Of a stretch of DNA of 64,000 bases, positions 20,164 through 58,103 are shown piece by piece. The notes beneath the pieces were generated by a model. It was not told the origin of the DNA. It saw only the letters and a list, made by a program, of their open reading frames with translations, and made no database searches. This stretch comes from Octopus vulgaris. Its lineage: Eukaryota. The stretch's first letter is position 1. Every line of letters starts with the position of its first letter. Where the stretch lies: the NCBI GenBank assembly GCA_951406725.2, contig OX597814.1, forward strand, positions 74,648,001-74,712,000. The letters are read 5' to 3'. Made by a program: the position numbers and the translations under genes.

Positions 20164-23100
20164 GATTTCTTTTATTGGCCACACAGGGTCCAACACGGAG
20201 GAGACATTACAAGGACAGACAAGCGAATATGCACAGTGTGATTACAATGAAAATGACAAATATAATGAAATCGGATGGGTATTTAAAAATTTTACAGAAA
20301 TCGTTAAAAATTAAAAATTCCTATTGTGTATATACATCACCGGGTTAAGCCACCGCTGTTATCCGACGTATCCTTTTGTCGCTGAATGGCTACTCTTAGC
20401 CATTTCCATTCACTCGCAACTTTCTTACGACTGTCGTCCATCTTTTATTAAACGTACTATGCAACAGGTATTTCATCTCTAGCCGGATACTTTGGAGGTG
20501 GTTGTTGAAATAACTAACCAGCCCCTCCGGCCAGAGATGAGGGTACCTGTCGCGAACCCTTTCACACGTGTTCTCAATACCGTCTCTTTCAGTATGGCCA
20601 CTACGCAGAGAAAAGAAGCCCTCCTCTCTCTGTTCAGGGAGGAGGGTAGAACAATCTTAAATAATAGATTCAGCTGATAGCTGTACTCTTTCTGTCGTTG
20701 ATAACAGCTGTTCGATATAGGTTGTCAATTCCCTAATTTTCGCACACTGTACGAAGGCATGCAGGACAGTTTCACTGTCCCACCCGTATCTCAAACAGGT
20801 CGGTGGGATGGCACAACTGTGCCTTGACAACCTCTCTCGAACAGGTAAGGCTGATTGGTAACACAACTAGGTCAGGGATTTCTGGTAATTATCCAGATAC
20901 CCCGACCCGAACGTTTTTTCGATCTGGTTGGTTAACTGATTTCTATCGAAGCCCAGAGTCTCCTCCAGGGCATTCTCTGACATGAACTTACCCTCTATAG
21001 AAGTCCGCGGTGGAACCCCAGCTGCCGCGGTATTGCCCGCCCGGGAAAGTAGCGTGAGTGCCTGTCAGCACTCTAGCTGTCAATCACCCAGTCTGGGTCT
21101 CTGCTTGATCCAAGGACTTAACTCCCGGAGGGAGGTCAGTTGCGGTAAGAAAAACTTCACGAGCGGTGACCACACTTGCTCACTATCCAGGTTGAGCTAG
21201 ATGTACCTAAGCCTTAGCGCAAACTTGTGCATCTTCAACCATGGCATCCCTAGCCCACCCTTTAACGGTTTTTGGCAGCAGATATAGAGCGCCGTACAAG
21301 TGGTGTCCCTCTCCACAAAAAGCGGAAGAGGAAACGCTCCAACTTGCTCAGGCCCAAATCGGGCAAGGTACGATGGTCAGGCGGTAGGTGATAACGTCCT
21401 TCCAAACCAAATCTGGGTGAGGACAGTCACCTTACTTGTGACCTCACTCCAATTCTTCTCTACCTGGAGTTCCGGACCAAACCAGACCTCTAGCATCTTA
21501 AGCGGACCTTCCGTCAAACGTCCCACGGCGTTATTGGACGGCATCGACTTACCCCCTCCAGGTGTCGAGTTGCAAGCCGACTAACTTATCCTGGTTAATT
21601 TTTGCTACTGCCACTGTTTCGTATCTTCTGATGGCGTTTTCTTGACAAAGTAGCTGCCGGTCATCCGACACGATGATGGTGATGGTGGTGTCATCCAAAT
21701 GCGCGGTCGCAGTTCTTCCACAGTTTAGATCACGCGAAATGCCCCCTAAAGTCTCCAACATTCGCAGCAATGGCTCAAGAGCCAACACATACAAAAGCGG
21801 AGACAGGGGACATCCCTGGCGAAGAGAGCGCTTAATGTCGAACGGTTTCGAAAAGAAACCGCCCACTCGGACGATAGACTCGATGTTGCACTACAGAGCA
21901 GCGATCTAGCCGCGGAATGTTGGGCCCAGCCCGCCCACCCGAGAACCGCCGCCAGGTACCGATGTCAGCCCTATCGAATGCTTTAGACTGGTCTAAATGT
22001 ACCAGTGCCCCACCTTTGCCAGAAATTTTAACCACCCGCTCTAAGGTGTGGTGTATGAGGTGGAGATTGTCGCGTATCGTACTGCTGGAGGTGGCACACG
22101 TTTGTGTTTCCCCAACAAGGCTACCCACGACCCGCGCCAATCTCTTTGCTAGCACCTTGGCCAAAATCTTTAACTCTGTGTTTAACAGATTAATGGGCCT
22201 AAAGTTACTAATAATGTTACCCTTTTTAGGGTCCTTTCTGATCAGCGTCATCCCACACCGGCTCACATCCTTTGAAATTCTCCCATTCTGCTGCTAGTTG
22301 GAATAAACGCTGGCCAGTAGGTGCCCGAACAAGTCTGGCATATTTTTGAAAAACTCATAGGGCAGACCATCAAATCCCGGCGACTTTTCCCGGGGGCACT
22401 TGGACAGTACCTCCATGACTTCCTTAGCCGTGATCGGTCCTTCGCAAACTCAGCCTCTTGTGCCGAGACACGCGGGCCACCACCCAGGAGTCCTGAAGGG
22501 GCTCACCATTGTCCAGTGCCTCACTCCTCCCGAACAACTCGGCAAAGTGCTTGTAAAAGACCTCACACATCTTGTCCTTGATCAAACACTCCTGTTCATT
22601 GACTAAAGACCCAATTGCAGTATTATTGCCGTTCTGGGTCTCTACAGTGTGGGCTCACCCGGCAACAACGATTTTCTCGCTGCCTAACTCTACATCCCAC
22701 GTGTTTGGCTTTAAGGAGTTGCTCCAATGCCGATCTCTCTGTCAAAGCTTGGGATGCAGAGCCCAACCGTAATGCCTCTTCTAAGTCCTTGACTAGATCC
22801 CTTTCTACTCTAGTCTTATCTGAACTTAGCTTCTGGCTAAATCTAATCGACTCAAATCGAATGGCTCGTTTGAGGGCAAACCACCACATGTTATTCAACA
22901 TGGTGCCGGTTAATGCCCTCAGGACTAACTCCTTAACCCGACTACGGTATGCCTCACAAGACAAAATAGTCATTTTAGCTTCCAGTAGCCAGATCCCTGT
23001 CTATATACTGTATCTATGTTCATCCTACACGTCACTAGCTTGTGATCCGTGTAGGAGACCAGAACAAACTGTGGACAATTAAAGCTAGACCTATCTCTAG

Positions 23101-23331
23101 TACGAACTATTATTCTATCTAAATAAGACCTGAACAGCCCGTCGCCATTACTCCTGGTCCACGCTGGGACGCTCGGGTGATCAAGTCTGTAACGATCTCC
23201 CAGCTAAAACCGCTTAAGCAGATCGATGAGGCGTAAGTTTTCTTCCTATTAACTGAGCCAACACAATCCTGGTGTGCATTCAGGATAGCGTGTAAAATCT
23301 CATAACATCACTAATGTCTTCGATGTCACAC
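20164..23331 (-). mobile_element. 5'-truncated, decayed Tx1/L1-clade LINE (ORF2 pseudogene), paralog of the element at 36577-41824
   Basis: Minus-strand fragments NFRPINLLNTELKILAKVLAKRL, LDQSKAFDR, RQGCPLSPLLYVLALEPLL and WWFALKRAIRFESIR; 3' tail tgtctcctccgtgttggaccctgtgtggccaataaaagaaatc; candidate TSD tattgttaaacgctt (20149-20163) / tattactaaacgctt (23332-23346). Confidence 0.93.
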
Positions 23332-25981: not shown

Positions 25982-26890
25982 TAAATAAAAGAGATTAAAA
26001 TTCGTGCTGTATCCTCAGGAAGTACTTCTGCAAATACTTGTTATCAAATGTCTATCTGTAAATGGTTTATCTTCAAGAAGCAAACTATGCAGAGAATCTG
26101 AAATTCTGCGTCAAGTATAATGGTTGCTGAGTATATCAAAAACTGGAATTCATGGTGTTATCTTTAATTCTGTAATTGCAATTATTTCAATAGAACGTGA
26201 GAAATCCATTTTATGAGCATAAATATCCCCGTTAATATCAATATAATAAATTCATAATCTTTATATATATATAAAACTGAGAATGTGTGTCTGTCTGTCT
26301 GCCTGTCTGTGTGTTTCCCTAAAACTTGAGAACTACACAACTAATTTCATTCAAATTTTACAGATGCCTTACTTATGGTCCGGGGAGTGTCATCGGCAAA
26401 ACAATTAACTTTTTGCCTAGGGCGAACCAACAGCAATATCATATCTTCTCCACTACGATTCCCTAAACTCGAGAACTACACAACCAATTTCATTCAAATT
26501 TTACACATGCCTTACTTAGGGTCCATGTAATTTCATGGGCAAAAAAATGTTCAACTTCTTGCCTAGAGCGAGCCCATTGCAATATCATATCTTCTCCACT
26601 ATTTCAGTATTACGTGTTAAAAGTGAAACAAAAACATTTCTCTATTTTATGTCAGATACTTTCACTTTAACAATAAAAATAATAACAATTGAATTATATG
26701 TAGTAAGTAATAATTAAAATCAAACTAAAGTATAATAAACTCGTAACATAAAAAAAGTAAAAATAGCAATTGGCATAAAATTGCATCAATGACTTGAACT
26801 TGAATAAGTGGTTTCACATGAATGGGAATAAATCAAAAATAAAATTAGCGTGCAGAAATGGAATAGTCCAGATGGATAATAAAAAATTAA

Positions 26891-26942
26891 ATTAAAGAAA
26901 AGACTATTGTCTATAAAGTATACAATGTAGAGGAAAAAAGGT
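26891..26942 (+). pseudogene. Left half of the decayed LINE ORF1 fragment (insertion target)
   Basis: Translates IKEKTIVYKVYNVEEKR, aligning with KRTITYRTWCVESKK, KRTISYRVFANERKR and NRRIIYKTFSITNRA in the neighbouring ORF1s. Confidence 0.65.
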
Positions 26943-28728
26943 TGCGTTTTTTTCGGCTCCCGTGTTTTTTTGAGTTAGTTAGTTAGAGTTATTCTGGTGT
27001 GTTTATTCTGGTGTGTTTATTTCGAGTAAAGAGGTTGTGAGTTCGAGTTCGTTGGAGGACGTGGAAAAATTTTTTCTTGAAAATGCAAGAGCAGACTTAC
27101 GCGCGAGCGGCAGGCAGAGGCCTGGTTGCCGGTGAACTGGAAATGGAGGAGGTGATGGTCGAACAGAAGACTTTACAGAAGTATTTCGACAGTTTAAAGA
27201 GGGAGGGTGACTGTGTGATAGTCACACCGTCCGAGGAGGAGGAAAGCAGTGCAGAGAAGCGTACTATAACGTACAGGACGTGGTGCGTGGAGTCGAAGAA
27301 GATTGAAGTAGCGGAAATGGAAGAAGTGGAAAGGTGTCTGAAGGAAATTGAGGGTGAACCAGCATTTTTTAAAAGAGGAAGGAAGTATGCCACGGTAGTG
27401 GTGTATTTTAAAACAGAAGAGGAGGCAAAAAAGAACGCTACAAGAATTTTGAAATCGGATAAGTGGACTTTGCTACCAAGTTACTGCGGAAGGAGAGCAG
27501 TGAGGATGAGAATCAATAGAATCTCACCCGAATTTAATATGGAAAGGTTGCTGGCAGCAGTGCTGTTTAACTGCAAGGATGATGTGGAGGTACTGAAGGT
27601 GGAGAAGTCAGCAGAGGTGAAGTGGTGGGGATATACGGCACACATAACCGTGCGAGACCTGTACAACATCCCGGAGGAGTTGGTCTACCCTGACGAAACA
27701 CGGCTCCGAGTTGTGGTAGAGGGAAGACCCCCAATTTGCTATAACTGTAAATCGAGGGGCCACATGAAGGATGTGTGCCCGCGAGAAAAAACAAAAGCAC
27801 CAGAGGTTGTGATAGAGGAGTGTAAAGAAGCGTGTGTGGAGGAAGCGAAAGCGGAGGAAACACAAATGGAGGAGCAGTTAAATGAGGAAGAACGAGCAAG
27901 TGCAGAAGAGGAAAAAACAGAAGACAAGAAGAGATCAAGGGTGGAATCACCACCGAAAGATATAAAAAAGAAAAAAATCAAAAGCAAGATAGCAGAAGAG
28001 AGAGAAGAGAAAAAAGAACAGGAAGTAAAAGAAAAGGTGAGAGAGCGACCAAGGACAGAGTTTGAACAAGAATGGGAGACAAGAGTGAACGAACAATTGG
28101 AATCGTGTAAATATGGAAGAAGGCCTACAGGAAAAAACTTGAAGGCAGTTGTGATGTATATCAAGAATACAGAAGTGGAAAAGAGACTTGTAGGTAAGAA
28201 AGGGTTGGTCAGGGTGAAGGTGAACCCAAAACTGTATGGTGAAGATGTAAAAGGCGTCATTATAGACAAGGAGACATACACAAAATTAAAAAAGATATAT
28301 CATGCTATGCATATAATGCATTATGTACGGTATGATAAATTACCAGATGTAATAGATCAAACGGACCTATTGGATTATATGACGGACGAGTGTCTAATGT
28401 AAAAGAATTAGAATTGTTACTTGTAAAATTATTTGATGTAAAGTTGTGTTTTTGAACAGGAATATATGTAATGTTAACATGTAAAATTGTAAAATTATTG
28501 TACTGTGAACTGGAATATATGTAACTGTAAAATTGTATTTTGAACTGGAATATATGAAATGTATAATTGTATTTTAAACGGAACTGCGAGTTGGGGGTTC
28601 GTAAGCCGTTCCATCTCATTACATATAAATTCATCTTTTACTTCATATTTTATTTTTACTTTATGTACCCCATGTCCCGTCTTGTAATGTCCCCCTCTTC
28701 GTGGCCCCTTGTGGGTAATAAAAAAATC
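26943..28728 (+). mobile_element. ORF1-only retroelement, unit A
   Basis: Starts gcgtttttttcggctc; single ORF; ends tgtccccctcttcgtggccccttgtgggtaataaaaaaatc. Confidence 0.85.
27083..28402 (+). CDS. LINE ORF1p-like protein (RRM-like region, CCHC zinc knuckle, charged linker), 439 aa from the first ATG
   Basis: Open frame; VEGRPPICYNCKSRGHMKDVC (CX2CX4HX4C); LLPSY.GRR motif shared with ORF1 of the autonomous LINE. Confidence 0.88.
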   Translation: MQEQTYARAAGRGLVAGELEMEEVMVEQKTLQKYFDSLKREGDCVIVTPSEEEESSAEKRTITYRTWCVESKKIEVAEMEEVERCLKEIEGEPAFFKRGRKYATVVVYFKTEEEAKKNATRILKSDKWTLLPSYCGRRAVRMRINRISPEFNMERLLAAVLFNCKDDVEVLKVEKSAEVKWWGYTAHITVRDLYNIPEELVYPDETRLRVVVEGRPPICYNCKSRGHMKDVCPREKTKAPEVVIEECKEACVEEAKAEETQMEEQLNEEERASAEEEKTEDKKRSRVESPPKDIKKKKIKSKIAEEREEKKEQEVKEKVRERPRTEFEQEWETRVNEQLESCKYGRRPTGKNLKAVVMYIKNTEVEKRLVGKKGLVRVKVNPKLYGEDVKGVIIDKETYTKLKKIYHAMHIMHYVRYDKLPDVIDQTDLLDYMTDECLM

Positions 28729-30403
28729 GCGTTTTTTTCGGCTCTGTGTTTTTTGCTCTCTGTGGAATTCGGTAAAAAGAAAAAAGAACAAAAAGTGAAT
28801 GGTTGTTGTTGTAAAATTTTGAACATAGTTGATGCGGTTTCGCGTCTCACTGGTTCTGCGCGTTACACTTTTTCGGTTCGGGAGGCCGTTTCTCGGCCGG
28901 AGGCGACTATGAGCCGCCTCCATCAAGCGGAGGAGATGGAAGGGAGATTTTACTCTGAAATTTCGACGGAAGTATCGACATCTGAGGAGGAGTTGGCGGT
29001 GAAAAAGATGGAAGGCACCTACGCAGGTGTAACGAAGAAGTCAACGGAAAGAGAGATAGACTTGGCTAAGTTGGCGGGCCTCCAGGAGTTTGTGAAGGAG
29101 GACGAGAACGGTGAAGTCGAGCTGCTGCATCCAGTAGGGCGCGGAGACTGGTTCCATCGTAGAACCATTAAATATAAAGTATTTATGAATGGAGGTAGAA
29201 AGATGGAAGTAATCAACATGGAAGCAATTGAAGAGGCTCTCAAGCAGACAGGAGAGGAAATTGTGTACATGACAAAAGGATTACAATACGGAACGATAAC
29301 GGTGCAATTTAAAAGCGAAAAAGCAGCCAGGAATGTAGCAGCCAAGGTGGTGAGTACAGAAAAGATTTACTTGTTACCCTCGTATCTGAATAGGCGGACA
29401 ACTAGAATTAGGGTGGAGGGAATACCTCCACACCTAGAGGGCGAATTAATAACGGCTGCGGTTATAAAAGGAAATGAAGATAAAGTGGACATCCTCCACG
29501 CCATTATGAAGTATGAAGGCGTGAGAGGTGCCACACTAGTTATGAACATTCAAGCGGAGGCGGATGTTATAGAGAGGATTACGGACAGCATAAAAACTGG
29601 AAATATTATTATGAGAGTGTGGGTGGAGGGTAGGGCGCCCAGGTGCTACAAGTGTGGCCAAAGGGGTCACATAAGAGCCTACTGCCCTCCCCCACCAAAG
29701 GAAAAAGAAAAGGAAAGCGTTGAGGAAGCCTCGGGAGAGGAAGAAAATAAACAGAAACAAACAGAGAAGGAAACGACAGAAGAAGAGGAGATGCAACAAG
29801 AGTGGAAAGAAGCGGGAACAAAGAGAAAAAGAAGGAAAAAGAAAAACTGTGCGAAGCCCCAACCCACCCCGACACCACCCATACCCTTGGAGTCCCATCC
29901 TTCCCCTGCAAACAGTAATTCCACCCACTCCCCGCCTACAAGAAAAATAAAAACAGACACACAGAGCAAAGAAAGTCCCAAGACCCATTTTTTATGTGTT
30001 ATACATGGGAAAGACATACAAAACGTTAAAAAACTGGTGTTAACCAAGTGGTACGAACACGAAGATTGGAGCTACACGGCTGTGGATAGTGATGATACGG
30101 GTATATTGGCGACAAGGTTAGAGGAAGAGGGTGTGTGTTGGAAGTCAGTGGAAATGAAAGATGAATGGATAGAGAGGGCTAAAAGAAAAACGAATGTTGT
30201 GATAGGTGAAACAGGAATACTAATTGGAAATGGGTGAAGAAGGACAGACAAGTGATGCTGGCGGATGGGGCCGTCGGTATCACTCTCATATATCATTTTT
30301 CATATTCCATTTTGCTCATATATATGTAATTGTGATGTTCCATGTCCCCATGTCTTGTAATGTCCCCCTCTTCGTTGGCCCCTTGTGGGTAATAAAGAAT
30401 CAT
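28729..30403 (+). mobile_element. ORF1-only retroelement, unit B
   Basis: Same 5' gcgtttttttcggctc and 3' ggccccttgtgggtaataaagaatc termini. Confidence 0.85.
28909..30237 (+). CDS. LINE ORF1p-like zinc-knuckle protein, ~442 aa
   Basis: First ATG inside the unit at 28909 (the ORF track's 28567 start runs through the previous unit's tail); VEGRAPRCYKCGQRGHIRAYC. Confidence 0.87.
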   Translation: MSRLHQAEEMEGRFYSEISTEVSTSEEELAVKKMEGTYAGVTKKSTEREIDLAKLAGLQEFVKEDENGEVELLHPVGRGDWFHRRTIKYKVFMNGGRKMEVINMEAIEEALKQTGEEIVYMTKGLQYGTITVQFKSEKAARNVAAKVVSTEKIYLLPSYLNRRTTRIRVEGIPPHLEGELITAAVIKGNEDKVDILHAIMKYEGVRGATLVMNIQAEADVIERITDSIKTGNIIMRVWVEGRAPRCYKCGQRGHIRAYCPPPPKEKEKESVEEASGEEENKQKQTEKETTEEEEMQQEWKEAGTKRKRRKKKNCAKPQPTPTPPIPLESHPSPANSNSTHSPPTRKIKTDTQSKESPKTHFLCVIHGKDIQNVKKLVLTKWYEHEDWSYTAVDSDDTGILATRLEEEGVCWKSVEMKDEWIERAKRKTNVVIGETGILIGNG

Positions 30404-32138
30404 GCGTTTTTTCGGCTCCTGAAAATTCGGTAAAAAAGAACAAAAAGCGTTGTTGTTGTTGTGGAAATTCTGAACGGCGTTGACGCGGTTTCGCGTTTCG
30501 CTCGTTCAGCGCGTTACACTTTTTCTGTTTTGGCGGCCGTTCTCGGTCTGTCAGACAGAAGGAAATGGACTATGAGTCTCTAACAGACTTGTCCACGACA
30601 GATGAGGAACTGGAACAGGCAATTGCAATGAAGCTGATGGAAGAAAAGGCTGGAATTTTCGAGTCTTTATCAGACCTGCCTACGTCTGAGAAAGAGCTAG
30701 AAATGGCAGCAAGGAATTTGGAAGAGAAGCTGGGTTATACCTATGCCGGTGTAACCAAGAAGGCGGAAGAGAAAGGGGTAGACATGGCCAAGTTGCCAAG
30801 TTACCAGAAATACATGAAAAAGGAAAGCGGTGAGGTGGAACTATCACCGACACCCAGGAGAAAAGAATGGTATGATAAGAGGACCATTAGTTACAGGGTG
30901 TTCGCAAACGAAAGGAAGAGGGCAGAAGTTGTAACCATGGAATGGATAGAGGAGGCCCTGCGAAGAACTGAGGAGGAAATAAATTTTCTGACTCGAGGAT
31001 CCAAGTACGGTACCGTAGTTGTGCATTTCAAAACTGAGTCTGCAGCGAGGAAGATGGCGGCGAAGCCGGTGAAGTCAGAAAAGGTAACCCTATTACCTAC
31101 GTATTTAAACAGGAGGATTACACGAATAAGGGTGGAGGGAGTGCCACCAAACGTGGAGGCAGAATGGATTGTGGCGGCTGTGATCAGCGGCCACGAGGAC
31201 GAAGTGGATATTCTCCATGCCTCGGTTAAGTCCGAGGGCTGGAGAGGCGTAACGGTGGAGCTGAACGTACAGGCAGAGACCGAGGTACTGGTGGACCTGA
31301 CGGAAAGCATCAGACTGGGAGACGTGATCATGAGAGTGTGGGTGGAGGGCAGGGCTCCACGTTGTTACAAGTGTGGCCTGAGGGGTCACATAAGAGCCTT
31401 CTGCCCTCCCCCAGGGAAAGAAATGGATTCCGAACCAGAGAGAGAGAAGCAGAAACCAGAGGAGAAGGAAACAGAGGAAGAGAATACACAGAAATGGAAG
31501 GAAGTTGGAAGTAAGAGGAAGAGAAGAATACGTGGAAAAAAAGAAAATAATATGGAACTCCAATCTCCCCAAAACCTCCCACACCCTCTGAGTCCCACCC
31601 TATCCATGCAGACATTGAACCCACCCGCTCCCCACCAACAAGAAAACAAAAGAAAAAAAAGAATACACACACACAAGAGATTGAAATCGAACCCAGGCCG
31701 TACATTTGTACTATGACTGAACAGAGGGAAGTTAAAAGTCTAATGGAAGAGTATAAACGGTATGATGTTGGAGAGACTAGGTATGCTGTGATTGAAAAAA
31801 AGAACATAGGTGAGTTTATGGGGAGGTGTGAAAAGGAAAATTGGGAGGTGAAAGATATAAGAATGAGCGATGAATTCGTGGAAAATATGAATGAGTATTT
31901 CGGAGTAAGAATGGATATGGAATTTATTCATATTGGCAAAGAACATTCAAGTGACTATGAAAAACAAAGGACAGGTAAGTGATGCTGACGGACGGGGCCG
32001 TTGGTATCGCTTTCATTTTATCATTTTTTTTTCGTTTAACAATTCATGTTCATAAAGTTTAATTATAATGTTCTATGTCCCCATGTTTTGTGATGTCCGC
32101 CATTCTTCGTAGCCCCTTAGTGGGTAATAAAGAAATAC
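30404..32138 (+). mobile_element. ORF1-only retroelement, unit C
   Basis: Same termini; near-identical to unit E. Confidence 0.87.
30565..31982 (+). CDS. LINE ORF1p-like zinc-knuckle protein with frameshift(s) near 31565-31640 (ORFs 30565-31716 and 31713-31982 are one gene)
   Basis: CYKCGLRGHIRAFC; comparison with B and E shows the frame should continue STPKPPTPSESHP...YICTMTEQ...QRTGK*; the indels lie in or next to C/A runs. Confidence 0.8.
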
Positions 32139-34819
32139 GCGTTTTTTTGCGCTCTGTAAAATTCGGTAAAAAAGAACAAAAAGCGTTGTTGTTGTTGTGG
32201 AAATTCTGAACGGCGTTGATGCGGTATCGCGTTTCGCTCGTTCTGCGCGTTACACTTTTTCTGTTTTGGCGGCCGTTTTCGGTCTGTCAGACAGAAGGAA
32301 ATGGACTATGAGTCTCTAACAGACTTGTCCACGACAGATGAGGAACTGGAACAGGCAATTACAATGAAGCTGATGGAAGAAAAGGCTGGAGTTTTCGAGT
32401 CTTTATCAGACTTGTCTACGTCTGAGAAGGAGCTAGAAATGGCAGCAAGGAAATTGGAAGAGAAGCTGGGATATACCTACGCCGGTGTAACCAAGAAGGC
32501 GGAAGAGAAAGGGGTCGACATGGCCAAGCTGCCAAGTTACCAGAAATACATGAAAAAGGAAAGCGGTGAGGTGGAACTATCACCGACACCCAGGAGAAAA
32601 GAATGGTATGATAAGAGGACCATTGTTTACAGGGTGTTCGCAAACGAAAGGAAGAGGGTAGAAGTTGTAACCATGGAATGGATAGAGGAAGCCCTGAGAA
32701 GAACTGAGGAGGAAATAAATTTTCTGACTCGAGGATCCAAGTACGGTACCGTTGTGGTACATTTTAAAAGTGAATCTGCAGCGAGGAAGATGGCGGCGAA
32801 GGCGGTGAAGTCAGAAAAGGTAACACTGTTACCTACGTATTTAAACAGGAGGATTACACGAATAAGGGTGGAGGGAGTGCCACCAAACGTGGAGGCAGAG
32901 TGGATTGTGGCGGCTGTGATCAGCGGCCACGAGGTGATTTTTTATTACCCACTAAGGGGCGACACAGAGGGGGACAACAAAAGACATGGGGACATAGAAC
33001 ATTATAATTAAACTTTATGAACATGTATTGTTAAACGAAAAAAAATGATAAAATGAAAGCGATACCAACGGCCCCGTCCGTCAGCATCACTTACCTGTCC
33101 TTTGTTTTTCATAGTCACTTGAATGTTCTTTGCCAATACGAATAAATTCCATATCCATTCTTACTCCGAAATACTCATTCATATTTTCCACGAATTCATC
33201 GCTCATTCTTATATCTTTCACCTCCCAATTCTCCCTTTCACACCTCCCCATAAACTCACCTATGTTCTTCTTTTCAATCACAGCATACCTAGTCTCTCCA
33301 ACATCATACCATTTATACTCTTCCATTAGACTTTTAACTTCCTCTGTTCAGTCATAGTACAAATGTACGGCCTGGGTTCGATTTCAATCTCTTGTGTGTG
33401 TGTATTCTTTTTTTTCTTTTGTTTTCTTGTTGGGGGGAGCGGGTGGGTTCAATGTCTGCATGGATAGGGTGGGACTCAGAGGGTGTGGGAGGTTTTGGGG
33501 TAGATTGGAGTTCCATATTATTTTCTTTTTTCCACATATTCTTCTCTTCCTCTTACTTCCAGCTTCCTTCCATTTCTGTGTATTCTCTTCCTCTGTTTCC
33601 TTCTCCTCTGGTTTCTGCTTCTCTCTCTCTGGTTCGGGATCCATTTCTTTCCCTGGGGAGGGCAGAAGGCTCTTATGTGACCCCTCAGGCCACACTTGTA
33701 ACAACGTGGAGCCCTGCCCTCCACCCACACTCTCATGATCACTTCTCCCAGTCTGATGCTTTCCGTCAGGTCCACCAGTACCTCGGTCTCTGCCTGTACG
33801 TTCAGCTCCACTGTTACGCCTCTCCAGCCCTCGGACTTAACCGAGGCATGGAGAATATCCACTTCGTCCTCGTGGCCGAAGTGGATATTCTCCATGCCTC
33901 GGTTAAGTCCGAGGGCTGGAGAGGCGTAACAGTGGAGCTGAACGTACAGGCAGAGACCGAGGTACTGGTGGACCTGACGGAAAGCATCAGACTGGGAGAA
34001 GTGATCATGAGAGTGTGGGTGGAGGGCAGGGCTCCACGTTGTTACAAGTGTGGCCTGAGGGGTCACATAAGAGCCTTCTGCCCTCCCCCAGGGAAAGAAA
34101 TGGATTCCGAACCACAGAGAGAGAAGCAGAAACCAGAGGAGAAGGAGACAGTAGAAGAGGAAGAGAATACACAGAAATGGAAGGAAGTTGGAAATAAGAG
34201 GAAGAGAAGAATGCGAGAAAAAAAAAAGAAAATAACATGGAACACCAATCTACCCCAAAACCACCCACACCCTCTGAGTCCCACCCTATCCATGCAGACA
34301 TTGAACCCACCCGCTCCCCCCAACAAGAAAACAAAAGAAAAAAGAGAATACATACAGACAAGAGATTGAAGTTGATATCAGGCCGTACATTTGTACTATG
34401 ACTGAACAGAAAGAAGTTAAAAGTCTAATGGAAGAGTATAAATGGTATGAAGTTGGTGAGACTAGGTATGCTGTGATTGAAAAGAAGAACATAGGTGAGT
34501 TTATGGGGAGGTGTGAAAGGGAGAATTGGGAGGTGAAAGATATAAGAATGAGCGATGAATTCGTGGAAAATATGGATGAGTATTTCGGAGTAAGAATGGA
34601 TATGGAATTTATTCGTATTGGCAAAGAACATTCAAGGGACGATGAAAAACAAAGGACAGGTAAGTGATGCTGACGGATGGGGCCGCTGGTATCGCTTTCA
34701 TAATATCATTTTCTTTCACTTAACAATTCATTTTTCATAAATTTTAATTATAATGTTCTATGTCCCCATGTCTTTTGGTGTCCCCCTCTGTGTCGCCCCT
34801 AGTGGGTAATAAAGAAATA
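32139..34819 (+). mobile_element. ORF1-only unit D: forward 5' part (32139-32934), inverted 3' half (32935-33877), forward 3' half (33878-34819)
   Basis: ORF 32301 breaks at ...VISGHE into tgatttttttattacccactaagggg (reverse-complement tail); palindrome centre ccacttcg-tcctcgtggc-cgaagtgg. Confidence 0.9.
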
Positions 34820-34850
34820 CTATAAAGTATACAATGTAGAGAAAAAAGGT
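34820..34850 (+). repeat. Right copy of the 31-32 bp target-site duplication (left copy 26911-26942)
   Basis: ctataaagtatacaatgtagag(g)aaaaaaggt at both positions, differing by a single G indel. Confidence 0.9.
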
Positions 34851-36564
34851 CGTGTTTTTTTCGGCTCCTGAAATTCGGTAAAAAAGAACAAAAAGCGTTG
34901 TTGTTGTTGTGGAAATTCTGAACGGCGTTGACGCGGTTTCGCGTTTCGCTCGTTCAGCGCGTTACACTTTTTCTGTTTTGGCGGCCGTTCTCGGTCTGTC
35001 AGACAGAAGGAAATGGACTATGAGTCTCTAACAGACTTGTCCACGACAGATGAGGAACTGGAACAGGCAATTGCAATGAAGCTGATGGAAGAAAAGGCTG
35101 GAATTTTCGAGTCTTTATCAGACCTGCCTACGTCTGAGAAAGAGCTAGAAATGGCAGCAAGGAATTTGGAAGAGAAGCTGGGTTATACCTATGCCGGTGT
35201 AACCAAGAAGGCGGAAGAGAAAGGGGTAGACATGGCCAAGTTGCCAAGTTACCAGAAATACATGAAAAAGGAAAGCGGTGAGGTGGAACTATCACCGACA
35301 CCCAGGAGAAAAGAATGGTATGATAAGAGGACCATTAGTTACAGGGTGTTCGCAAACGAAAGGAAGAGGGCAGAAGTTGTAACCATGGAATGGATAGAGG
35401 AGGCCCTGCGAAGAACTGAGGAGGAAATAAATTTTCTGACTCGAGGATCCAAGTACGGTACCGTAGTTGTGCATTTCAAAACTGAGTCTGCAGCGAGGAA
35501 GATGGCGGCGAAGCCGGTGAAGTCAGAAAAGGTAACCCTATTACCTACGTATTTAAACAGGAGGATTACACGAATAAGGGTGGAGGGAGTGCCACCAAAC
35601 GTGGAGGCAGAATGGATTGTGGCGGCTGTGATCAGCGGCCACGAGGACGAAGTGGATATTCTCCATGCCTCGGTTAAGTCCGAGGGCTGGAGAGGCGTAA
35701 CAGTGGAGCTGAACGTACAGGCAGAGACCGAGGTACTGGTGGACCTGACGGAAAGCATCAGACTGGGAGACGTGATCATGAGAGTGTGGGTGGAGGGCAG
35801 GGCTCCACGTTGTTACAAGTGTGGCCTGAGGGGTCACATAAGAGCCTTCTGCCCTCCCCCAGGGAAAGAAATGGATTCCGAACCAGAGGAGAAGGAAACA
35901 GAGGAAGAGAATACACAGAAATGGAAGGAAGTTGGAAGTAAGAGGAAGAGAAGAATACGTGGAAAAAAAGAAAATAATATGGAACTCCAATCTACCCCAA
36001 AACCACCCACACCCTCTGAGTCCCACCCTATCCATGCAGACATTGAGCCCACCCGCTCCCCCCCCAACAAGAAAACAAAAGAAAAAAAAGAATACACACA
36101 CACAAGAGATTGAAAGCGAACCCAGGCCGTACATTTGTACTATGACTGAACAGAAAGAAGTTAAAAGTCTAATGGAAGAGTATAAATGGTATGATGTTGG
36201 AGAGACTAGGTATGCTGTGATTGAAAAGAAGAACATAGGTGAGTTTATGGGGAGGTGGGAAAGGGAGAATTGGGAGGTGAAAGATATAAGAATGAGCGAT
36301 GAATTCGTGGAAAATATGGATGAGTATTTCGGAGTAAGAATGGATATGGAATTTATTCGTGTTGGCAAAGAACATTCAAGTGACTATGAAAAACAAAGGA
36401 CAAGTAAGTGATGCTGACGGACGGGGCCGTTGGTATCGCTTTCATTTTATCATTTTTTTCGTTTAACAATTCATGTTCATAAAGTTTAATTATAATGTTC
36501 TATGTCCCCATGTTTTGTTATGTCCGCCATTCTTCGTAGCCCCTTAGTGGGTAATAAAGAAATC
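34851..36564 (+). mobile_element. ORF1-only retroelement, unit E
   Basis: Same termini; ORF1 matches unit C over the N-terminal ~290 aa, with a 21-bp deletion (REKQKPE). Confidence 0.87.
35013..36411 (+). CDS. LINE ORF1p-like zinc-knuckle protein, frameshifted in a poly-C run at ~36058-36065
   Basis: ORFs 35013-36113 and 35932-36411 join at the homopolymer; this may be a sequencing error or a real indel. Confidence 0.8.
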
Positions 36565-36795
36565 ACATGGAGGAAATCAATTTTTTGCGTTAGTAGTAAG
36601 TTGATATATATTTTTGCTCTCATACTACTTATCTCTGTTATTATATACTGTTGGTCTACCTTTTTTTGTCCATTGTTGTCGAACTGACGAAGTCAACCTT
36701 CGCGCGAAGACTTCGCGTTGGTGTTCCCCCCTCAGTGGGGGAAAACTACAATTAATTTAGATTTACCAAAGGCTTGTTAAAGCCATTTGTTCAAG

Positions 36796-38173
36796 ATGGA
36801 GTCCCCCATCACTTATTCGCCCGTGACGAGCGAGGATGAATACCCGGCGTTGTCGCCAAGTAAAAAAGAGGCGTTGTCGCCAAGAAAAAAGGGCGCTGTC
36901 GCCGAAGAAAAAAGAGGCGGCGTCGCCCAAGAAAATGGAAAAATCAGTACCAGCATCAACTCCAGCAAAAAAATTCGCTGAAGTGGCTGGGAAGAAAATT
37001 AAAAAAATTAACGTGGACAACCTGGGAAAACATGCGGACTGTGTGTCAAAAGAGGGCACGGAAGTAACCGTGGCTTCAAACGCCCAAATACAGGAGGATA
37101 TTTCGAATAGGAGAATAATCTATAAGACATTCAGTATAACAAACAGAGCAATCCAAAAAATAGAGGAGAAAAAGATTGAAAACTGCTTAAAGCCAATAAT
37201 GGATAAAATTACGTATATCAATCGAGGGAAGAAATACGGCACAGTGGAGGTGAGATTCACGTCAGAGGAGGTAGCGAAGAAGCTATCCATGGAACCCATA
37301 AAAGCGGAGGATATTGTTCTCCTACCCCTGTATAAAGGCAAGAGAACTTCCAAGATCACAATGAACAACATCCCGCCAGAAGCGGATGCCGAAGTCCTAG
37401 TGGCAGCAGTTATGGTAGGCCTGGAGGAAAAAATAAACATCCTCCAGGCCACCGTAGAAGAAGAAGAATTCTGGAAAGGGCAAAAGATAATAATAGCCAT
37501 ACGAGCAGAAGTACAAACCCTGGAAGAGATCCCAGAGACTCTAAGGATAAGCGAAGATGAAAGAGTCACAGTCTTCGTAGAGGGCAGAAAGCCGAGGTGC
37601 TTCGGCTGCGGTAAGAAGGGGCATGTAAGGGCGGAATGCCAGCCCCAACCCAAACCGCAGGAAGCACCTAAGCCAAAAGAAAAAGAAGACAATGTGTCAC
37701 CAGAAGCAGCGTCAGACGGCCCAGAAGGGAAGACTGAAGGTGTGGAGGTGATGGTAACAGCAGAACCAGCGGCGGAGAAAAAAAAGAGCGAGGAAAAGAT
37801 AAATGAGGAGGGGTGGGCAAAAATTATCGGAAAAAAAAAAAGAAAAACGGAAACCACCCCTCCCAGAGTAATTTTAAAAAAGAAAAAAGAGTCAATGAAC
37901 TCATATATGGCCGTAAAAGCATCAAATAGCAGACTCGGAAACGTGTTGGCAGCCATGGCCAAAGTGAAGAAAGTAGAGAAAAAAAATGACTTTGTAATTT
38001 ACAAAATAGACCGGAAGGATTACGGGCGGATAAAGTCAGAATTCTTCCATGACGTAGGCCCACTTAGGTTGGATGTAACATCTCCACATATATTCGAGGG
38101 CCTACGTCAGACTCCCCCACGAGGCCCAGAAAAAGAGAAGGAAGAAGAAGAAAAAACCGAACCACTGATATAA
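36796..38173 (+). CDS. ORF1p (gag-like, CCHC zinc knuckle); probable true start 36796 with a frameshift in a 24-bp repeat at ~36890
   Basis: MESPITYSPVTSEDEYPALSPSKKEALSPRKK joins ALSPKKKEAASPKKMEK...; VEGRKPRCFGCGKKGHVRAEC. Confidence 0.88.
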
Positions 38174-38182
38174 AGGTAAGTA

Positions 38183-41100
38183 ATGGATTACATTTATGTT
38201 GGTTGTTTAAATGTGCGCGGCCTGGGAGCAGGCTGGAAGCAAGGTCGCTTCCTGCATGATATCAGGTCGCGTAATTTAGATGTTATTGTTGCTACAGAAA
38301 CCCGGTTAGAGGGGCCAAGAGGTCTACTCCCGCTGTTTGACGGCTACGAGAGTTTTTTCTCTCCTGGCAGTCCTACAGGCGGGAGTGGGGTGTTGGTCCT
38401 ATTAAAAAGAAACCGGGTTTCTGAGAAAAAGTTAATTTTTGCAGATCCAGAAGGTAGGCTGGTCGTCATGGATTTGACGTTCAGTAATGGTAAAGTTATC
38501 AGACTGGTTGCAATTTACGCACCCAACCATACAGGGCAAAGTGATTATTTTCGTGAACTAGAAAACTTTCTTGGTACTTCGCATTCATTAGTGGTGCTAG
38601 GAGACTTTAACACAATTTGCAAAGCGGATGTAGATTATGTTGGCTCGTGTCCAGATAGAAAAGGCAACAGTGGCTTCATGGAACTGCTAAGCCGCTTTGA
38701 GCTAGCAGATCCTTATAGGCTGGAATTTCCGAACGCTCCATTGTGGACATGGTCAAACAGCGACGGATCTTCCAGGTCATATCTAGATAGAATACTAATT
38801 AGAAAAGTAGACAGTAAAATAGCTAAGTGTCCACAGTTTTACCCGATCAGCTACAGTGATCATAAAATGGTCACTTGTAAGCTTGACATAGATAAGGTTA
38901 AAAATAGAGGATCCGGTTACTGGAAACTTAATACGTCCCTTTTGGCGATTAAGGAGTACAAAGACCGGATTAGGAATATAATTCAGAGGGCACTATCTGG
39001 TACCATCATTAATAACAAATGGTGGTACGCCCTCAAACGAGCCATCAAGTTTGAGTCTATTAGATATAGCATAGGAGTAGTGGCTAGAGAGGCTAGAAGG
39101 GAAACTACTCTAGTTAAGGAATTAGAGGAAGCCATGAAAACTGGCTCTGCGGCTCAGGTGGCGGCCAAGAGACTGGTGTTAAACCAGCACCTCGAGGCCA
39201 AACACATGGGCTGCATTGTCAGGGCTAGAATCCGTCATATGGGATGTGAAGGAATCAACGCCGTGAGATGGGCCCGAGTGGTGGAAGCTCAGCATGGTAA
39301 CGATGCCACGATTCGATCTTTGACGAACCAACAAGGTGAGTTGATAAACGAACCCGAGGAGATGTGTGAGGCCTTTCAGGAGCACTTCGCTCAGCTTTTC
39401 GGTGAGTGCGGCGGACTGGATAGGAGGAGGGCCTTTACGGACCTACTCGACGGTCTGCCGCGCTTATCGGGGCGAGATGCGGAGGGCTGTGAAGGGCCAA
39501 TCACGCCTGAGGAGGTGGTTGAGGCAATGGCGGACTGCGGCGCGGGCAAGGCGCCGGGTTTGGATGGTCTACCCTATGAGTTATATAAGAGTATGCCAGA
39601 CTTGTTCGGGCACCTACTGGCGGAGGTCTACGCGAACTGGCAGCAGAACGGGCTTATACCCAGATCTGTGCGCCGGGGAGTAGTGACTCTCGTCAGAAAG
39701 GACCCGAGCAAGGGGGAGTGCATTGATAATTTCAGGCCCATCACTCTGCTAAACACAGAGTTGAAGATTTTGGCCAAAGTGTTATCGAAAAGATTGGCGC
39801 GTGTCGCGGATGGTCTGATCGGAGGGGCACAGACATGTGCCGTTCCGGGCAGATCCATTCAGGATAATCTCCATCTAATGCGGTACACTATAGAGGGGTT
39901 TAATAGTGATTCTGGCAAGGGTGGGGCACTGGTCCATTTAGACCAATCTAAAGCTTTTGATAGGGTCGACCATCGTTACCTGGTATCTGCCCTGGCACAG
40001 TTCGGGCTGAGCCTTGGATTCCTCAGGTGGATTATCGAAATTTATGATAACATCGACTCGGTAGTTCGGGTGAACGGCTTCTTGTCGAAGCCGTTCAAAA
40101 TCAAACGCTCGGTTCGTCAAGGGTGTCCGCTCTCCCCGCTTTTGTACGTGATGGCTCTTGAGCCATTACTGCGAAAACTGAGCGGCATCCCGAGACAGCC
40201 AGGTAATGGAAAATCAGTGTCAGCGTACGCGGATGACATCACCATCATCGTAACCGAAATGGACCACCTATGTAAAGTAGGCAAGGCCATAGAGGTGTAC
40301 GAGACGGTGACAGGAGCAAAAGTTAATCGCGAAAAGTCAGTCGGCTTGCAACTCGGCACCTGGAGAGGCAAGTCGATGCCTCCTGACAGCGTCGTGGGAC
40401 GTTGGACGGAGGGTCCGATTAAACTGCTAGGGGTCTGGTTCGGTCCAGACCTCCAAATAGAGAAGAATTGGGGCGAGGTAACGAGCAAGGTGGCTGCAGT
40501 AGCCAAGACCTGGTCTTGGCGGTGGCTATCCCTGAAAGGGAGGGCGGAGGTGGCCAATGTGTTTATCGCATCGGTTATCACCTACCGCCTTTCCGTCGTT
40601 CCTTGCCCTGATTCGTGGTTGATCAAGTTGGAAAGACAGCTCTTCTACTTCTTGTGGAAGGGCGGGAAACCACTTGTGAAACGCTCTACTTGCTGTCAAC
40701 AACCGTTAAAGGGTGGGCTAGGGATGCCTTGGCTGATGATGCGCAGACATGCGCTGAGGTTAAGACATCTGTGGCTCTACCTGGATGGTGAACGGGTGTG
40801 GTCTTCGCTAGCAAAACTGATGTTTCCCAAGTTCACTAGTTTCGGTGGATGGGAAACCTGGCTGAATCGTAGATCGAAACTTGGTACTTGGTACACGGAG
40901 TGTCGCAAGGCTCTCCTGCTATTCCGTCGCTCGGGCAACGCCTGCGGTGGGGGTTCCACCACATTCTTCTATAGAGGGTTGGTAGAGGCGGAATGTGAAG
41001 ATACCTTGGGGGAAACCCTAGGTCTCGACGATAATCAGCTGGCCAGTCTGTTCCGACGTACGTTCGAGCCAAGGACACTGGACAACTTCCAGAAGTCTCT

Positions 41101-41578
41101 GGCATGGCAATGCTACAGAGGAGCTCTACCTGTTCGGGATAAACTCGCAAGGCACGGTGGCCAAGACAGTCCGATATGTCCAAGATGCGGGCGGGATAGG
41201 GAAACCGTCCCGCACGCGATTGTTCATTGTCCGGACGTGTCTGAGGTGTGGGTTTATGCCGAACACCTGTTGTCAGGTACACGAAGAGTACAGCTGTCGA
41301 CTGAGTCGATTACAAAAATTGACCCACCGGATTTCCTCGTGAATGAAGGTAAGTTTCGTTTTCTCGTTGTAGTAGCAATCGCGAAAGAGGTGATATGGAA
41401 GACGAGAATGAAAGGTTTACAGTCAGGCAAGTTCATCTCCGGCCCTGGTTTGATGAATTATTTCATCTTTCACCTGAAAAGGAAGATAGGGCTGGAGAGA
41501 ATATGCCTGACTAGGAGAGCGTATGAAGAACGATGGAAGGATGTAGCACGGAAGTTGCGAATGAAAGTTACAACATAA
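38183..41578 (+). CDS. ORF2p: APE endonuclease, reverse transcriptase and C-terminal zinc finger (1131 aa, intact)
   Basis: EN motifs NVRGL, TET, IYAP, GDFN, YLD, SDH; RT motifs PGLDG, FRPITLLN, LDQSKAFDRV, RQGCPLSP, YADD; GGLG; CPRC...H...C; GYWKLN linker typical of L1/Tx1. Confidence 0.97.
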   Translation: MDYIYVGCLNVRGLGAGWKQGRFLHDIRSRNLDVIVATETRLEGPRGLLPLFDGYESFFSPGSPTGGSGVLVLLKRNRVSEKKLIFADPEGRLVVMDLTFSNGKVIRLVAIYAPNHTGQSDYFRELENFLGTSHSLVVLGDFNTICKADVDYVGSCPDRKGNSGFMELLSRFELADPYRLEFPNAPLWTWSNSDGSSRSYLDRILIRKVDSKIAKCPQFYPISYSDHKMVTCKLDIDKVKNRGSGYWKLNTSLLAIKEYKDRIRNIIQRALSGTIINNKWWYALKRAIKFESIRYSIGVVAREARRETTLVKELEEAMKTGSAAQVAAKRLVLNQHLEAKHMGCIVRARIRHMGCEGINAVRWARVVEAQHGNDATIRSLTNQQGELINEPEEMCEAFQEHFAQLFGECGGLDRRRAFTDLLDGLPRLSGRDAEGCEGPITPEEVVEAMADCGAGKAPGLDGLPYELYKSMPDLFGHLLAEVYANWQQNGLIPRSVRRGVVTLVRKDPSKGECIDNFRPITLLNTELKILAKVLSKRLARVADGLIGGAQTCAVPGRSIQDNLHLMRYTIEGFNSDSGKGGALVHLDQSKAFDRVDHRYLVSALAQFGLSLGFLRWIIEIYDNIDSVVRVNGFLSKPFKIKRSVRQGCPLSPLLYVMALEPLLRKLSGIPRQPGNGKSVSAYADDITIIVTEMDHLCKVGKAIEVYETVTGAKVNREKSVGLQLGTWRGKSMPPDSVVGRWTEGPIKLLGVWFGPDLQIEKNWGEVTSKVAAVAKTWSWRWLSLKGRAEVANVFIASVITYRLSVVPCPDSWLIKLERQLFYFLWKGGKPLVKRSTCCQQPLKGGLGMPWLMMRRHALRLRHLWLYLDGERVWSSLAKLMFPKFTSFGGWETWLNRRSKLGTWYTECRKALLLFRRSGNACGGGSTTFFYRGLVEAECEDTLGETLGLDDNQLASLFRRTFEPRTLDNFQKSLAWQCYRGALPVRDKLARHGGQDSPICPRCGRDRETVPHAIVHCPDVSEVWVYAEHLLSGTRRVQLSTESITKIDPPDFLVNEGKFRFLVVVAIAKEVIWKTRMKGLQSGKFISGPGLMNYFIFHLKRKIGLERICLTRRAYEERWKDVARKLRMKVTT

Positions 41579-41824
41579 ATGTAATACCAAGTGCAACCAA
41601 AAGTATCAGTGGGGAGGCGGGGCTCGTGGGGTCCGAGCTAAACCCGCACCCACTCCACCCGTAATGTCTTCCGGTCTGTCCTATCACTCGATTTCTGTCC
41701 ATTTATTGTTATTCATGAAAATTTTTAAACCCGATTTATTGTAAAAACCCATTCGTTTGTCTGACCCCATCATCAGATTGTATTGTCCCATCTGTGTTCG
41801 CCCCTTGTGGGTAATAATAAAACA

Positions 41825-42145
41825 ACATGGAGGAAAGCACCTTCGAAAAGTGTCTTGGTGCGACTATGAAAGTTATCTAATCAGAGGCGGTAAACTCGCC
41901 ACAATAGAAGCAAGGTTCGAGTCAACGGAGCGTGCAAAGGAGTACTCGACTCGAACTTGTAAAGTGGAAATATTCTATTTCTACCTTTATATCTGGGACG
42001 TAGGACGTCCCGGAAAAAATTTAAAATGCCCCCCCCCCCCCCCGAAGTAGAGGTAGGTTGGATTGTAGCCACACTTCTATACAAGAGGGAGGACAAGATA
42101 CAATTGATCGAAATTACAAGAGACGGGCTAACAATTCCAGTCTGT
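41825..42145 (+). pseudogene. Right half of the decayed LINE ORF1 fragment (insertion target)
   Basis: Frameshifted MEESTFEKCL / SYLIRGGKLATIEARFESTERAKEYS / FLPLYLGRRTSR / PEVEVGWIVATLLYKREDKIQLIEI, collinear with the ORF1s of units A-F. Confidence 0.85.
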
Positions 42146-42589
42146 TATATATTTTGAGTATTGTTATCACTAGCGATATCAAGATATAACTTTGTATTTT
42201 GTATTTTATGTGTAGATGTATATACATAGATGTACATGTAATATGTACACATATATATACACATATATACATGCACTAGCACTATGACCCGGCAACGACG
42301 GGTCTTTAATGCTAGTATTATAATAACTATACATACATGGGTACTTACAACATGGATACTTACAAAATGTGTGTGAGCGTATATATGTATGTATGTATAA
42401 TATTTTAAGACTCCATTACTCAAATTCCATTCACAAAGCTTCAAAACTGTATTTATAGAAAATTAAATTGCATAAATATTACAAGCCGACCGTATTCTCA
42501 TTCCCTACCAATAACCTACACTTGCATATGCGGGAGTGGATCAGTTAGTGCATTTATGCATAATTTTTTCCGTTATTCCATTTTTAATA

Positions 42590-42809: not shown

Positions 42810-43524
42810 TATATCTCACTTTGTGAATTCATCTCCGAACAAATTGCTTTCATTCTCCATTTTAAATGGTTTTAAATACATCTGTGGTAATTCCATATTG
42901 GTGCGTATCGCTGATGACGTTTGAATTTTTTTTTTTGTCATTTTGCTTTGGTTTTTATTTTGTTACTATTTTAACCGACTTCATTCACATTACAGATGCT
43001 TCAATCTCGATATTCTGAAAAGCCCGAGAAAAAAATTATGAATATCCCGTAAATATAAGTTTATACCTTCCTACTCCACATTCAAGAAAGACCGTTTCAC
43101 ACTTCACAGGTTGTGTATTGAGTAATTTATATTCGTCAATAAGTCGTCTATTGAATAATTTCTATTCGTACATAGAGGGTTATTTACTTGCGCATTTATG
43201 GTACTCCTTGAAGTTTGTGGTACTTCTCTTAGCAAGTATGTAATATATTTATAGCAGTTTTATACTTTTATAAAATCAACCAGTTATGCCACGGGCAAAA
43301 TATTTTGTATTTTACACTATTAAAAAATAAAAATTACTGAGATACTCTTTGAGCAGGTCACGACGAAGATCATACTCAATAAAGGAACTGATTTATAATC
43401 ATCACCATTCAAAACTATCATTTTTTAGTTTCATGCGGTCGGTAAAAAAATATATTTTCTCGATTTTTCGAGACATTTTAAAAAAATTGAATATTGCTAC
43501 AAGTTAAATTTAAAATAAAATATA

Positions 43525-44326
43525 GGATCGTTACCTTTTGACCGACAAATTTAAAAAATAATTTTTTGTAACTAAACACTTTCAAACTGCGAACACTGGT
43601 AGAATGTGTCATACAAAACATGTTTTACTCGCAGAATTTTTGAGAAAAACTTATATTTACGAAGTTATTTCACGTTTAAGTTCTCGTATTTCGGTAATTT
43701 CAACCAATGACGTGTATTCAGTTGAATAAAATTACTGCCGTTGTTTGTCAACAACAACTGTCGGTGGTGTATTTTTCGTTTGTCACTGTTATTTATGACA
43801 TCGTTCGTGCGTTTGTACTGGTTTTAAGGTTTTGGGTTAGGGTTAGGGTTAGGGTTTTAGGGTTAGGGTTAGGGGTAGGGTTTTAGGTTTTAGGGTTAGG
43901 GTGTTAGGGTTAGGGTTTTAGGGTTAGGGTTAGGGTTAGGGTTTTAGGTTTTAGGGTTAGGGTGTTAGGTTAGGGTTTTAGGGTTAGGGTTAGGGTTATA
44001 AGGTCAGGGTTAGGGTTTTAGGGTAAGGGTTAGGGTTAGGGTTTTAGGGTTAGGGTTGTCATAAATAACAGTGACAAACGAAAAATACACCGCCAGAAGT
44101 TCTTGTTGACAAACAACGGCAGTAATTTTATTCAGCTGAATACACGTTGAAATTACCGAAATTTTACAACTTTAACGTGGAATAACTTCGTAAATATATG
44201 TTTTTCTCAAAAATGCTAAGAGTAAAACATGTTTTATATGACACATTCTACCAGTGTCCGAAGTTTGAAAGTGTTTAGTTACAAGAAATTATTTTTTTAA
44301 ATCTATAGGTCAAAAGGTAAAGATCC
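43525..44326. mobile_element. Foldback DNA element with ~275-bp TIRs, GGATC termini, 8-bp TSD and an internal telomeric repeat tract
   Basis: aaaatata|ggatcgttaccttttgacc...tgttatttatgaca / tgtcataaataaca...ggtcaaaaggtaaagatcc|aaaatata. Confidence 0.85.
43820..44057 (+). repeat. Interstitial (TTAGGG)n tract with TTTTAGGG variants
   Basis: Direct reading. Confidence 0.95.

Positions 44327-57294: not shown

Positions 57295-58103
<809 letters not shown>

Follow-up and report, generated by a model that had tools for sequence, protein, structure and literature searches.

Probable backward insertion of a sister copy behind a LINE-derived palindrome in Octopus vulgaris

How could one short LINE-derived unit come to carry its 3' half twice, in opposite directions, with both inner ends at nearly the same ORF1 position? 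We analysed this question in a 64,000-nucleotide window of Octopus vulgaris DNA (contig OX597814.1, positions 74,648,001 to 74,712,000), where an earlier note had described a near-perfect palindrome inside one unit (D below). Self-BLAST confirmed that the palindrome is real in the sequence, giving one minus-strand match at 32938-34816 (1892 columns, 94.4%, 2904 bits), far above chance.

The window DNA is microsatellite-rich and transposon-rich, and at 26944-42140 it holds a head-to-tail array of LINE-derived units in the order A, B, C, D, E, F and G, all of which share one kind of 3' end. Units A to E are ORF1-only, F is an intact two-ORF LINE, and G, at the end of the array, is a frameshifted ORF1 fragment. 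Apart from the antisense arm described below, the C/D/E-type units are full length, as are A, B and F. The units and repeats used for comparison were as follows.

26911..26942, plus strand: left copy of a TSD-like direct repeat of 31-32 bp flanking A-B-C-D, one base off the right copy, in a purine run
30404..32138, plus strand: unit C, an ORF1-only sister
34820..34850, plus strand: right copy of the direct repeat, directly 3' of D's tail
34852..36564, plus strand: unit E, an ORF1-only sister
36577..41824, plus strand: unit F, the intact two-ORF LINE (ORF1 36836-38173; ORF2 38183-41578)

The 1131-aa ORF2 of F carries endonuclease, RT and C-terminal zf-RVT domains and its ORF1 a zinc knuckle, the domain set of the L1/Tx1 group; in Pfam, PF03372, PF00078 and PF13966 were above cut-off and the ORF1 zf-CCHC below it. 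The lead towards Tx1 goes by name alone, since one of 35 matches was Transposon TX1 149 kDa protein (26% identity) and most were unnamed. Proteins of Octopus sinensis and O. vulgaris matched F ORF1 with 59-65% identity. F is the type of element that would supply RT, and was presumably a helper. The ORFs of A to E proved homologous to F ORF1 (tblastn E 1e-22 to 1e-41; 31-36% identity) with an invariant CCHC knuckle; having a LINE-type ORF1 and 3' end without ORF2, these units are HAL1-like. Further family copies, as a means to polarise the GEVIM variant described below, were sought by a protein search with the E ORF1, which returned none at E<=0.001 among 3214 candidates, and by an Atlas search, which returned nothing beyond unnamed CCHC clusters at 0.90-0.91.

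At the A/B, B/C and C/D junctions a 3' end meets a 5' end without a flanking repeat, and the A-B-C-D block has a single repeat pair, a pattern suggestive of template jumps from end to end or of a multi-ORF1 composite. F is flanked by its own 12-bp repeat (36565 and 41825). The right repeat copy directly follows D's tail, which links the sense arm of the palindrome to the original A-B-C-D insertion. Together with the antisense arm, the repeat around this block suggests that ORF1-only copies may have been dispersed and mobilised in trans. The ORF1 5' halves of D and E (32301-32934 and 35013-35646) differ at 25 of 634 nt (3.9%; 16 synonymous and 8 non-synonymous codons), and this synonymous excess suggests that selection may have acted on ORF1 in the source copies of the ORF1-only units. 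C and E were identical over 831 bp (30423-31253 and 34871-35701), yet 2.4% apart in the distal 3' half; the identity may reflect conversion, a mosaic source or polishing.

Other repeats were present around the array. The segments 26260-26910 and 42270-42315 resemble, by eye, the two ends of one non-autonomous rolling-circle element (on the right, a short GC hairpin followed by CTAG), inside which the array may be nested. An older LINE on the minus strand (20170-23232) is broken and 5'-truncated, is related to F ORF2 (66% nt identity) and has the same 3' terminus. At 43498-44350, inverted repeats of 304 bp (86.5%) flank a tract of degenerate telomere-like TTAGGG repeats about 240 bp long, and three further foldback or MITE-like inverted repeats lie at 6557-7069, 18660-19085 and 62979-63396. 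Mariner-type transposase fragments, for which PF01359 and PF17906 scored above cut-off, occur together with a weak Tc3-like HTH and another decayed RT fragment at 56052-57129 (minus), 47797-48006 (minus) and 48673-50228 (plus), and an almost pure (AT)n tract of about 390 bp lies at 57723-58111.

The palindrome itself was resolved into the following parts.

32139..32934, plus strand: 5' part of unit D, the probable insertion target, with 5' UTR and ORF1 nt 1-634; ATG at 32301; open frame; 3.9% from C/E
32924..32934, plus strand: 11-nt overlap (ORF1 nt 624-634), whose reverse complement recurs at the antisense-arm inner end (33868-33878)
32935..33878, minus strand: antisense arm, the probable inserted piece, a 5'-truncated sister copy with C/E-like body and D/F-type tail
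32935..32985, minus strand: native 3' terminus of the inserted copy, with a stem-like CCCC..GGG, AATAAA at 32941-32946, then AAATCA; 0-1 nt of microhomology to the target
33141..33146, plus strand: cryptic AATAAA in the antisense arm, candidate end of read-through before the tip
33655..33866, minus strand: left half of the central perfect stem, 212 bp ungapped, or 208 columns before the first gap in the global alignment
33867..33876, no strand assigned: 10-nt loop, antisense on the plus strand, closed by self-complementary CG/CG (33865-33866 with 33877-33878)
33877..34819, plus strand: sense arm, the 3' half and tail of D itself; AATAAA at 34808; first ~230 nt unusually close to C, E and the antisense arm
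34150..34155, plus strand: 6-bp insertion private to the sense arm, from the arm alignment

Aligned globally, the arms matched at 893 of 945 columns, with 37 substitutions and 6 indel events. The description near-perfect therefore suits the central stem of 208-212 bp, the figure depending on gap placement within a C run, but not the rest of the arms. As the earlier note had it, the 5' part of D ends at 32934 with GGCCACGAGG (32925-32934, ORF1 nt 625-634), and the GEVIM variant (33743/34000), the shared tail type and the 6-bp indel (34150-34155) were all recovered. The inner end of the antisense arm is equivalent to ORF1 nt 624, 11 nt past the break in D, and the sense arm restarts at nt 636, so one base of D, nt 635, is absent between the break and the restart; the CG dinucleotide at 33877-33878 is common to both arms. 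The inverted 11-nt overlap is of TSD size and may reflect a staggered cut. The junctions at 32934 and 33877 showed no direct repeat, hence no ordinary direct TSD, and no poly(A), and comparison of eight 3' junctions by eye revealed no common target-site motif.

To trace the two arms, we aligned four 3' halves, those of C, E, the antisense arm and the sense arm. The distal body of the antisense arm differed from C by 11/633 substitutions (1.7%) and from E by 12/612 (2.0%), compared with 35/634 (5.5%) from the sense arm. At 27 substitution sites it agreed with C and E against a base private to the sense arm, and three sites, one of them dependent on gap placement, grouped it with C. It also had five private substitutions and exactly matched neither C nor E. 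The two arms stood together against C and E at seven substitutions (one in GEVIM, six within the final 45 nt of the tail) and two indels. Diagnostic variants common to the arms are thus present, as had been claimed, but they are a minority beside the 27 sites that side with C and E. The common origin that they had been taken to imply found no support, the arms being of different lineages over the distal 650 bp. Since the arms have different sources, their divergence gives no date, and the arm alignment proposed for dating the event is unusable. A mirror duplication of D's own half as it stands is ruled out by the same 27-site pattern. Both pieces of D were distant from E (3.9% and 5.4%) and are enclosed by one TSD-like pair; the similar distances indicate that D is one interrupted unit and the antisense arm the newcomer. 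This newcomer is a mosaic of C/E body and D/F-type tail, and no such donor was seen in the window.

The outer end of the antisense arm was then compared with other tails. All eight (A, B, C, D, E, F, the antisense arm and the older LINE) had the same terminus shape and stopped about 6 nt past AATAAA without poly(A), and the AAATCA ending of the antisense arm recurred in E and the older LINE. This outer end differed from D's own end at three places in about 50 nt, and to judge from its letters it resembles an RNA-templated 3' junction. Over 59 nt, the antisense tail showed one substitution against the sense-arm tail and 7-8 against C/E. There were two tail types in the array, with C/E partly like A/B and both D arms like F, and tail type appears to assort independently of the body.

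These observations can be joined in one account, towards which we lean slightly: a 5'-truncated sister copy in reverse orientation would have entered D at ORF1 nt 634 by target-primed reverse transcription (TPRT), splitting the unit, with fold-back and homology sealing the break. A LINE endonuclease would nick the plus strand after 32934, and the free end would prime on the tail of a sister ORF1-only RNA. The cDNA would halt on becoming homologous to its own target site, 11 nt beyond the position matching the cut, because there the cDNA could pair with the primer flap and the RNA with the other target strand. Its 3' end would then fold back on the 2-bp CG and prime a second strand of about 210-230 nt, which would anneal in register with D's own 3' half (about 95% identical). 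In a variant order, D's far broken end, with its 11-nt overhang, would fold back first and the cDNA would be joined afterwards by homology; the map would be the same, and the coincidence of the end with the cut would be explained without a stall. Under uniform truncation, the insert would end within 12 nt of the homologous coordinate with a probability of about 1.4%, which favours the fold-back account, with the reservation that a 1% coincidence can occur because this is a single event chosen after the fact.

The beginning of the sense arm bears on the fold-back step. Its first 231 nt had 1 difference from E, against 25/634 in the 5' half of D (Fisher P = 0.006), and the probability of any such window being as C/E-like was P = 0.008. 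Within the first 207 nt there was likewise 1 difference from E, and the perfect stem rests on this one informative site. The Poisson likelihood of the single difference was 0.065 at the donor-lineage rate and 0.002 at the D-lineage rate, conservation not yet being allowed for. The start of the sense arm thus looks overwritten from a C/E-like donor, and for the donor of the central 208-212 bp the evidence leans to the cDNA. Two findings count against overwriting: the same segment is better conserved between B and E (32/48 vs 27/63 identical codons, P = 0.02), and D-E differences thin out already within 100 nt before the breakpoint. Short-read polishing could also homogenise a palindrome centre.

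The lineage and 3'-junction evidence would fit equally well an ordinary antisense insertion of a sister copy, with chance 5' truncation near the homologous position, a 2-nt microhomology join, one target nucleotide lost and no fold-back. The array shows these elements piling up in one place, and an E-like donor would differ at about one site in the first 207 nt regardless; but this route needs the coincidence of about 1.4% and leaves unexplained both why D is C/E-like exactly from the breakpoint and why the GEVIM base is shared, and we consider it unlikely. That a sister copy was inserted into D, by either of these routes, is probable. Somewhat less likely than ordinary insertion is a reverse duplication of D's 3' half, through template switching during replication, fold-back at a break or the RNA of D itself, with later gene conversion of the middle ~640 bp of the new arm by a C/E-like copy. 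The antisense arm is indeed D-like at either end (GEVIM and the tail), and the 831 bp identical in C and E make exchange between units plausible. Such a history requires two events, a DNA-level switch has no cause to hit the exact 3' terminus, and the antisense arm, with its five private substitutions, equals neither C nor E and departs from D's extreme end at three places. A single event, in which twin priming or template jumping produced the inverted piece while A-B-C-D was inserted, is suggested by the repeat-free 3'-to-5' joins at A/B, B/C and C/D, which look like end-to-end template jumps by this RT; we hold it extremely improbable, since both arms cover the same 3' half, differ in lineage and sit inside D. 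The overlap and separate lineages of the arms, together with an insert inside D without direct TSD, also uphold the earlier view that the geometry is not classic twin priming.

An artefact of assembly or library, whether a fold-back chimeric read, an amplification chimera or a haplotype misjoin, was weighed in the same way. Frameshifts occur in all four C/D/E-type 3' halves, mostly at homopolymer runs, whereas A, B and the two F ORFs are open. These frameshifts, like the 831 bp identical in C and E, hint at imperfect consensus in the repeats, and fine detail, the stem included, may owe something to leftover errors of sequencing or polishing. A mirrored read, however, would copy the sense arm, and this was correctly dismissed earlier, for the antisense arm shares 27 substitutions with C and E and lacks the 6-bp insertion. 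An artefact would also require two non-homologous junctions, one on an exact element terminus, and there is no adapter-like spacer at the palindrome and no N in the window. We therefore regard an artefact as very unlikely. The preferred reading remains that a sister copy inserted backwards and that fold-back and homology sealed the break; the product is probably a passive fossil in which D's ORF1 was destroyed.

To assess whether the palindrome could act through RNA, we examined its predicted folding and its matches within the array. As had been proposed, read-through RNA would fold into a long duplex, with 11 perfect runs of at least 21 bp (690 bp in total); 11 of the 37 arm mismatches become G-U pairs in RNA, and the predicted fold of the central 951 nt has -937 kcal/mol. 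The antisense 21-mers perfectly matched C in 570/923 cases and E in 535/923. The suggestion that silencing might extend through the shared tail failed, as 0/923 perfectly matched A, B, F, G or the older LINE; with up to three mismatches allowed, 104 of the 923 matched B, 7 A and 1 F. The longest word common to the antisense arm and F was 15 nt, and in the absence of a perfect 21-mer the hairpin would not target the RT source seen here. The cryptic AATAAA at 33141 and an ATTAAA at 33007, also on the plus strand before the hairpin tip, may terminate transcripts ahead of it, although the native ORF1 contains an AATAAA of its own, at 32714, so that termination need not follow from a hexamer by itself. 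Transcripts that did stop early would still be antisense to C and E.

Only transcription running through the palindrome would make it a substrate for ADAR or Dicer. A Pfam search for a host exon that could supply read-through took the 145 longest complex frames (all >=62 aa) beyond the two LINE regions and recognised none, giving transposase and RT fragments and weak sub-threshold matches only; short exons could escape this search. Rfam gave 0 matches in the window at gathering score. An editing imprint in the DNA was not apparent, A-to-G changes on the plus strand making up 4/27 sense-arm and 2/5 antisense-arm private substitutions, unclustered, in what is a weak test. According to the accessible text of PMC5625713, an exceptionally large fraction of octopus loci can form long duplexes, and hyper-editing in octopus is very high, so an edited hairpin here would be ordinary.

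That the locus serves as a hairpin silencer of the C/D/E subfamily, a role compatible with any real origin, is consequently quite doubtful. The 690 bp of perfect duplex, the predicted fold and D's 5' UTR in place upstream speak for it, as does maize Mu killer, which is proposed to act likewise (PMC3440606, in the part available). The hexamers at 33007 and 33141, the lack of a perfect 21-mer against RT-encoding F, the absence of any host exon recognised in the flanks, and the commonness and heavy editing of long duplexes in octopus (PMC5625713, same text) speak against it. Slightly more doubtful is a general route in which homology-arrested backward self-insertion would build hairpin traps in clustered LINE families, stopping at its own cut coordinate and always leaving a short-loop palindrome behind an intact promoter, with this locus silencing or editing the ORF1-only subfamily and sparing the RT helper. 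At present the locus is a lone fossil amid transposon-rich DNA, and nothing about it points to a function.

Its wider interest lies in insertion chemistry. The joining of the 5' end is described in accessible parts of PMC3215922 as a poorly understood step of TPRT, and the locus resembles a natural test of how a LINE insertion is completed on a target that is homologous to the cDNA but reversed. If the fold-back model is true, antisense self-insertions should end at the homologous coordinate above chance, in octopus or human assemblies; if transcribed, such palindromes would be ready-made triggers of small-RNA silencing or editing. Self-insertion of exactly this geometry had no report in the literature searched, which covers few subscription journals; it is a variation on known L1 break outcomes.

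Compared with known systems, the array units resemble HAL1 in being non-autonomous and ORF1-only with a LINE-like 3' end; HAL1 elements, however, are mammalian L1 derivatives, whereas A to E carry an F-related zinc-knuckle ORF1 and sit head to tail (PMC5753468, accessible text). A 2026 paper on octopus repeats names L1-Tx1 families that were recently active, and the portion of its main text available contains no mention of ORF1, palindrome or nested (PMC13282606). With Mu killer the palindrome shares a long inverted duplication of transposon coding sequence and a potential read-through hairpin; Mu killer derives from a DNA transposon and, as far as the accessible account goes, matches and silences the autonomous element, whereas the palindrome has no match to autonomous F, the only such element compared (PMC3440606). 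Inverted Alu pairs likewise place two related retro-copies head-to-head in a near-palindrome, but as two whole elements side by side, where here one lies inside the other with inner ends at the same coordinate (PMC3215922). Such pairs with spacers of <=24 bp are described there, in the available part, as unstable and depleted, and this depletion suggests that the octopus palindrome is young.

Twin priming shares the head-to-head junction, the short microhomology and the LINE-derived sequence, but uses non-overlapping parts of one RNA, whereas here the same 3' half occurs twice in two lineages. Its 5' segment is inverted and adjoins the target flank; it was reportedly described by Ostertag and Kazazian in 2001. 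The accessible text of PMC10191854 places the inversion within the insert body. The closest parallel, by analogy, is the break left by human L1 insertion, whose known outcomes of break foldback and homology-aided joining would be combined in the preferred account. L1 breaks yield inversions and inverted duplications, small hairpins with 2-bp homology and TSD-like overlaps (10.1101/2024.12.14.628481); 0.3% of somatic L1 insertions have a foldback duplication of ~52-220 bp beside them (PMC10191854); and homology of 50-150 bp favours joining of L1 cDNA to breaks (10.1101/2025.09.17.676864), as given in the available portions of these sources. The octopus locus shows a retro-insertion 3' end at the break (native terminus at 32935, without poly(A) like all eight tails), a small hairpin with about 2 bp of homology (CG/CG, 10-nt loop) and a TSD-sized breakpoint overlap, which at 11 nt is close to the 12-bp repeat flanking F but inverted. 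Its distal ~700 bp was not copied from the target, and its loop polarity, judging from a figure legend, is unlike that of a plain reciprocal-end inverted duplication. In the L1 cases, so far as those accounts extend, flanking genomic DNA unrelated to the cDNA is inverted, whereas this is a germline fossil in an invertebrate whose target was a sister element, so that insert and flank together form a palindrome with 0.94-kb arms.
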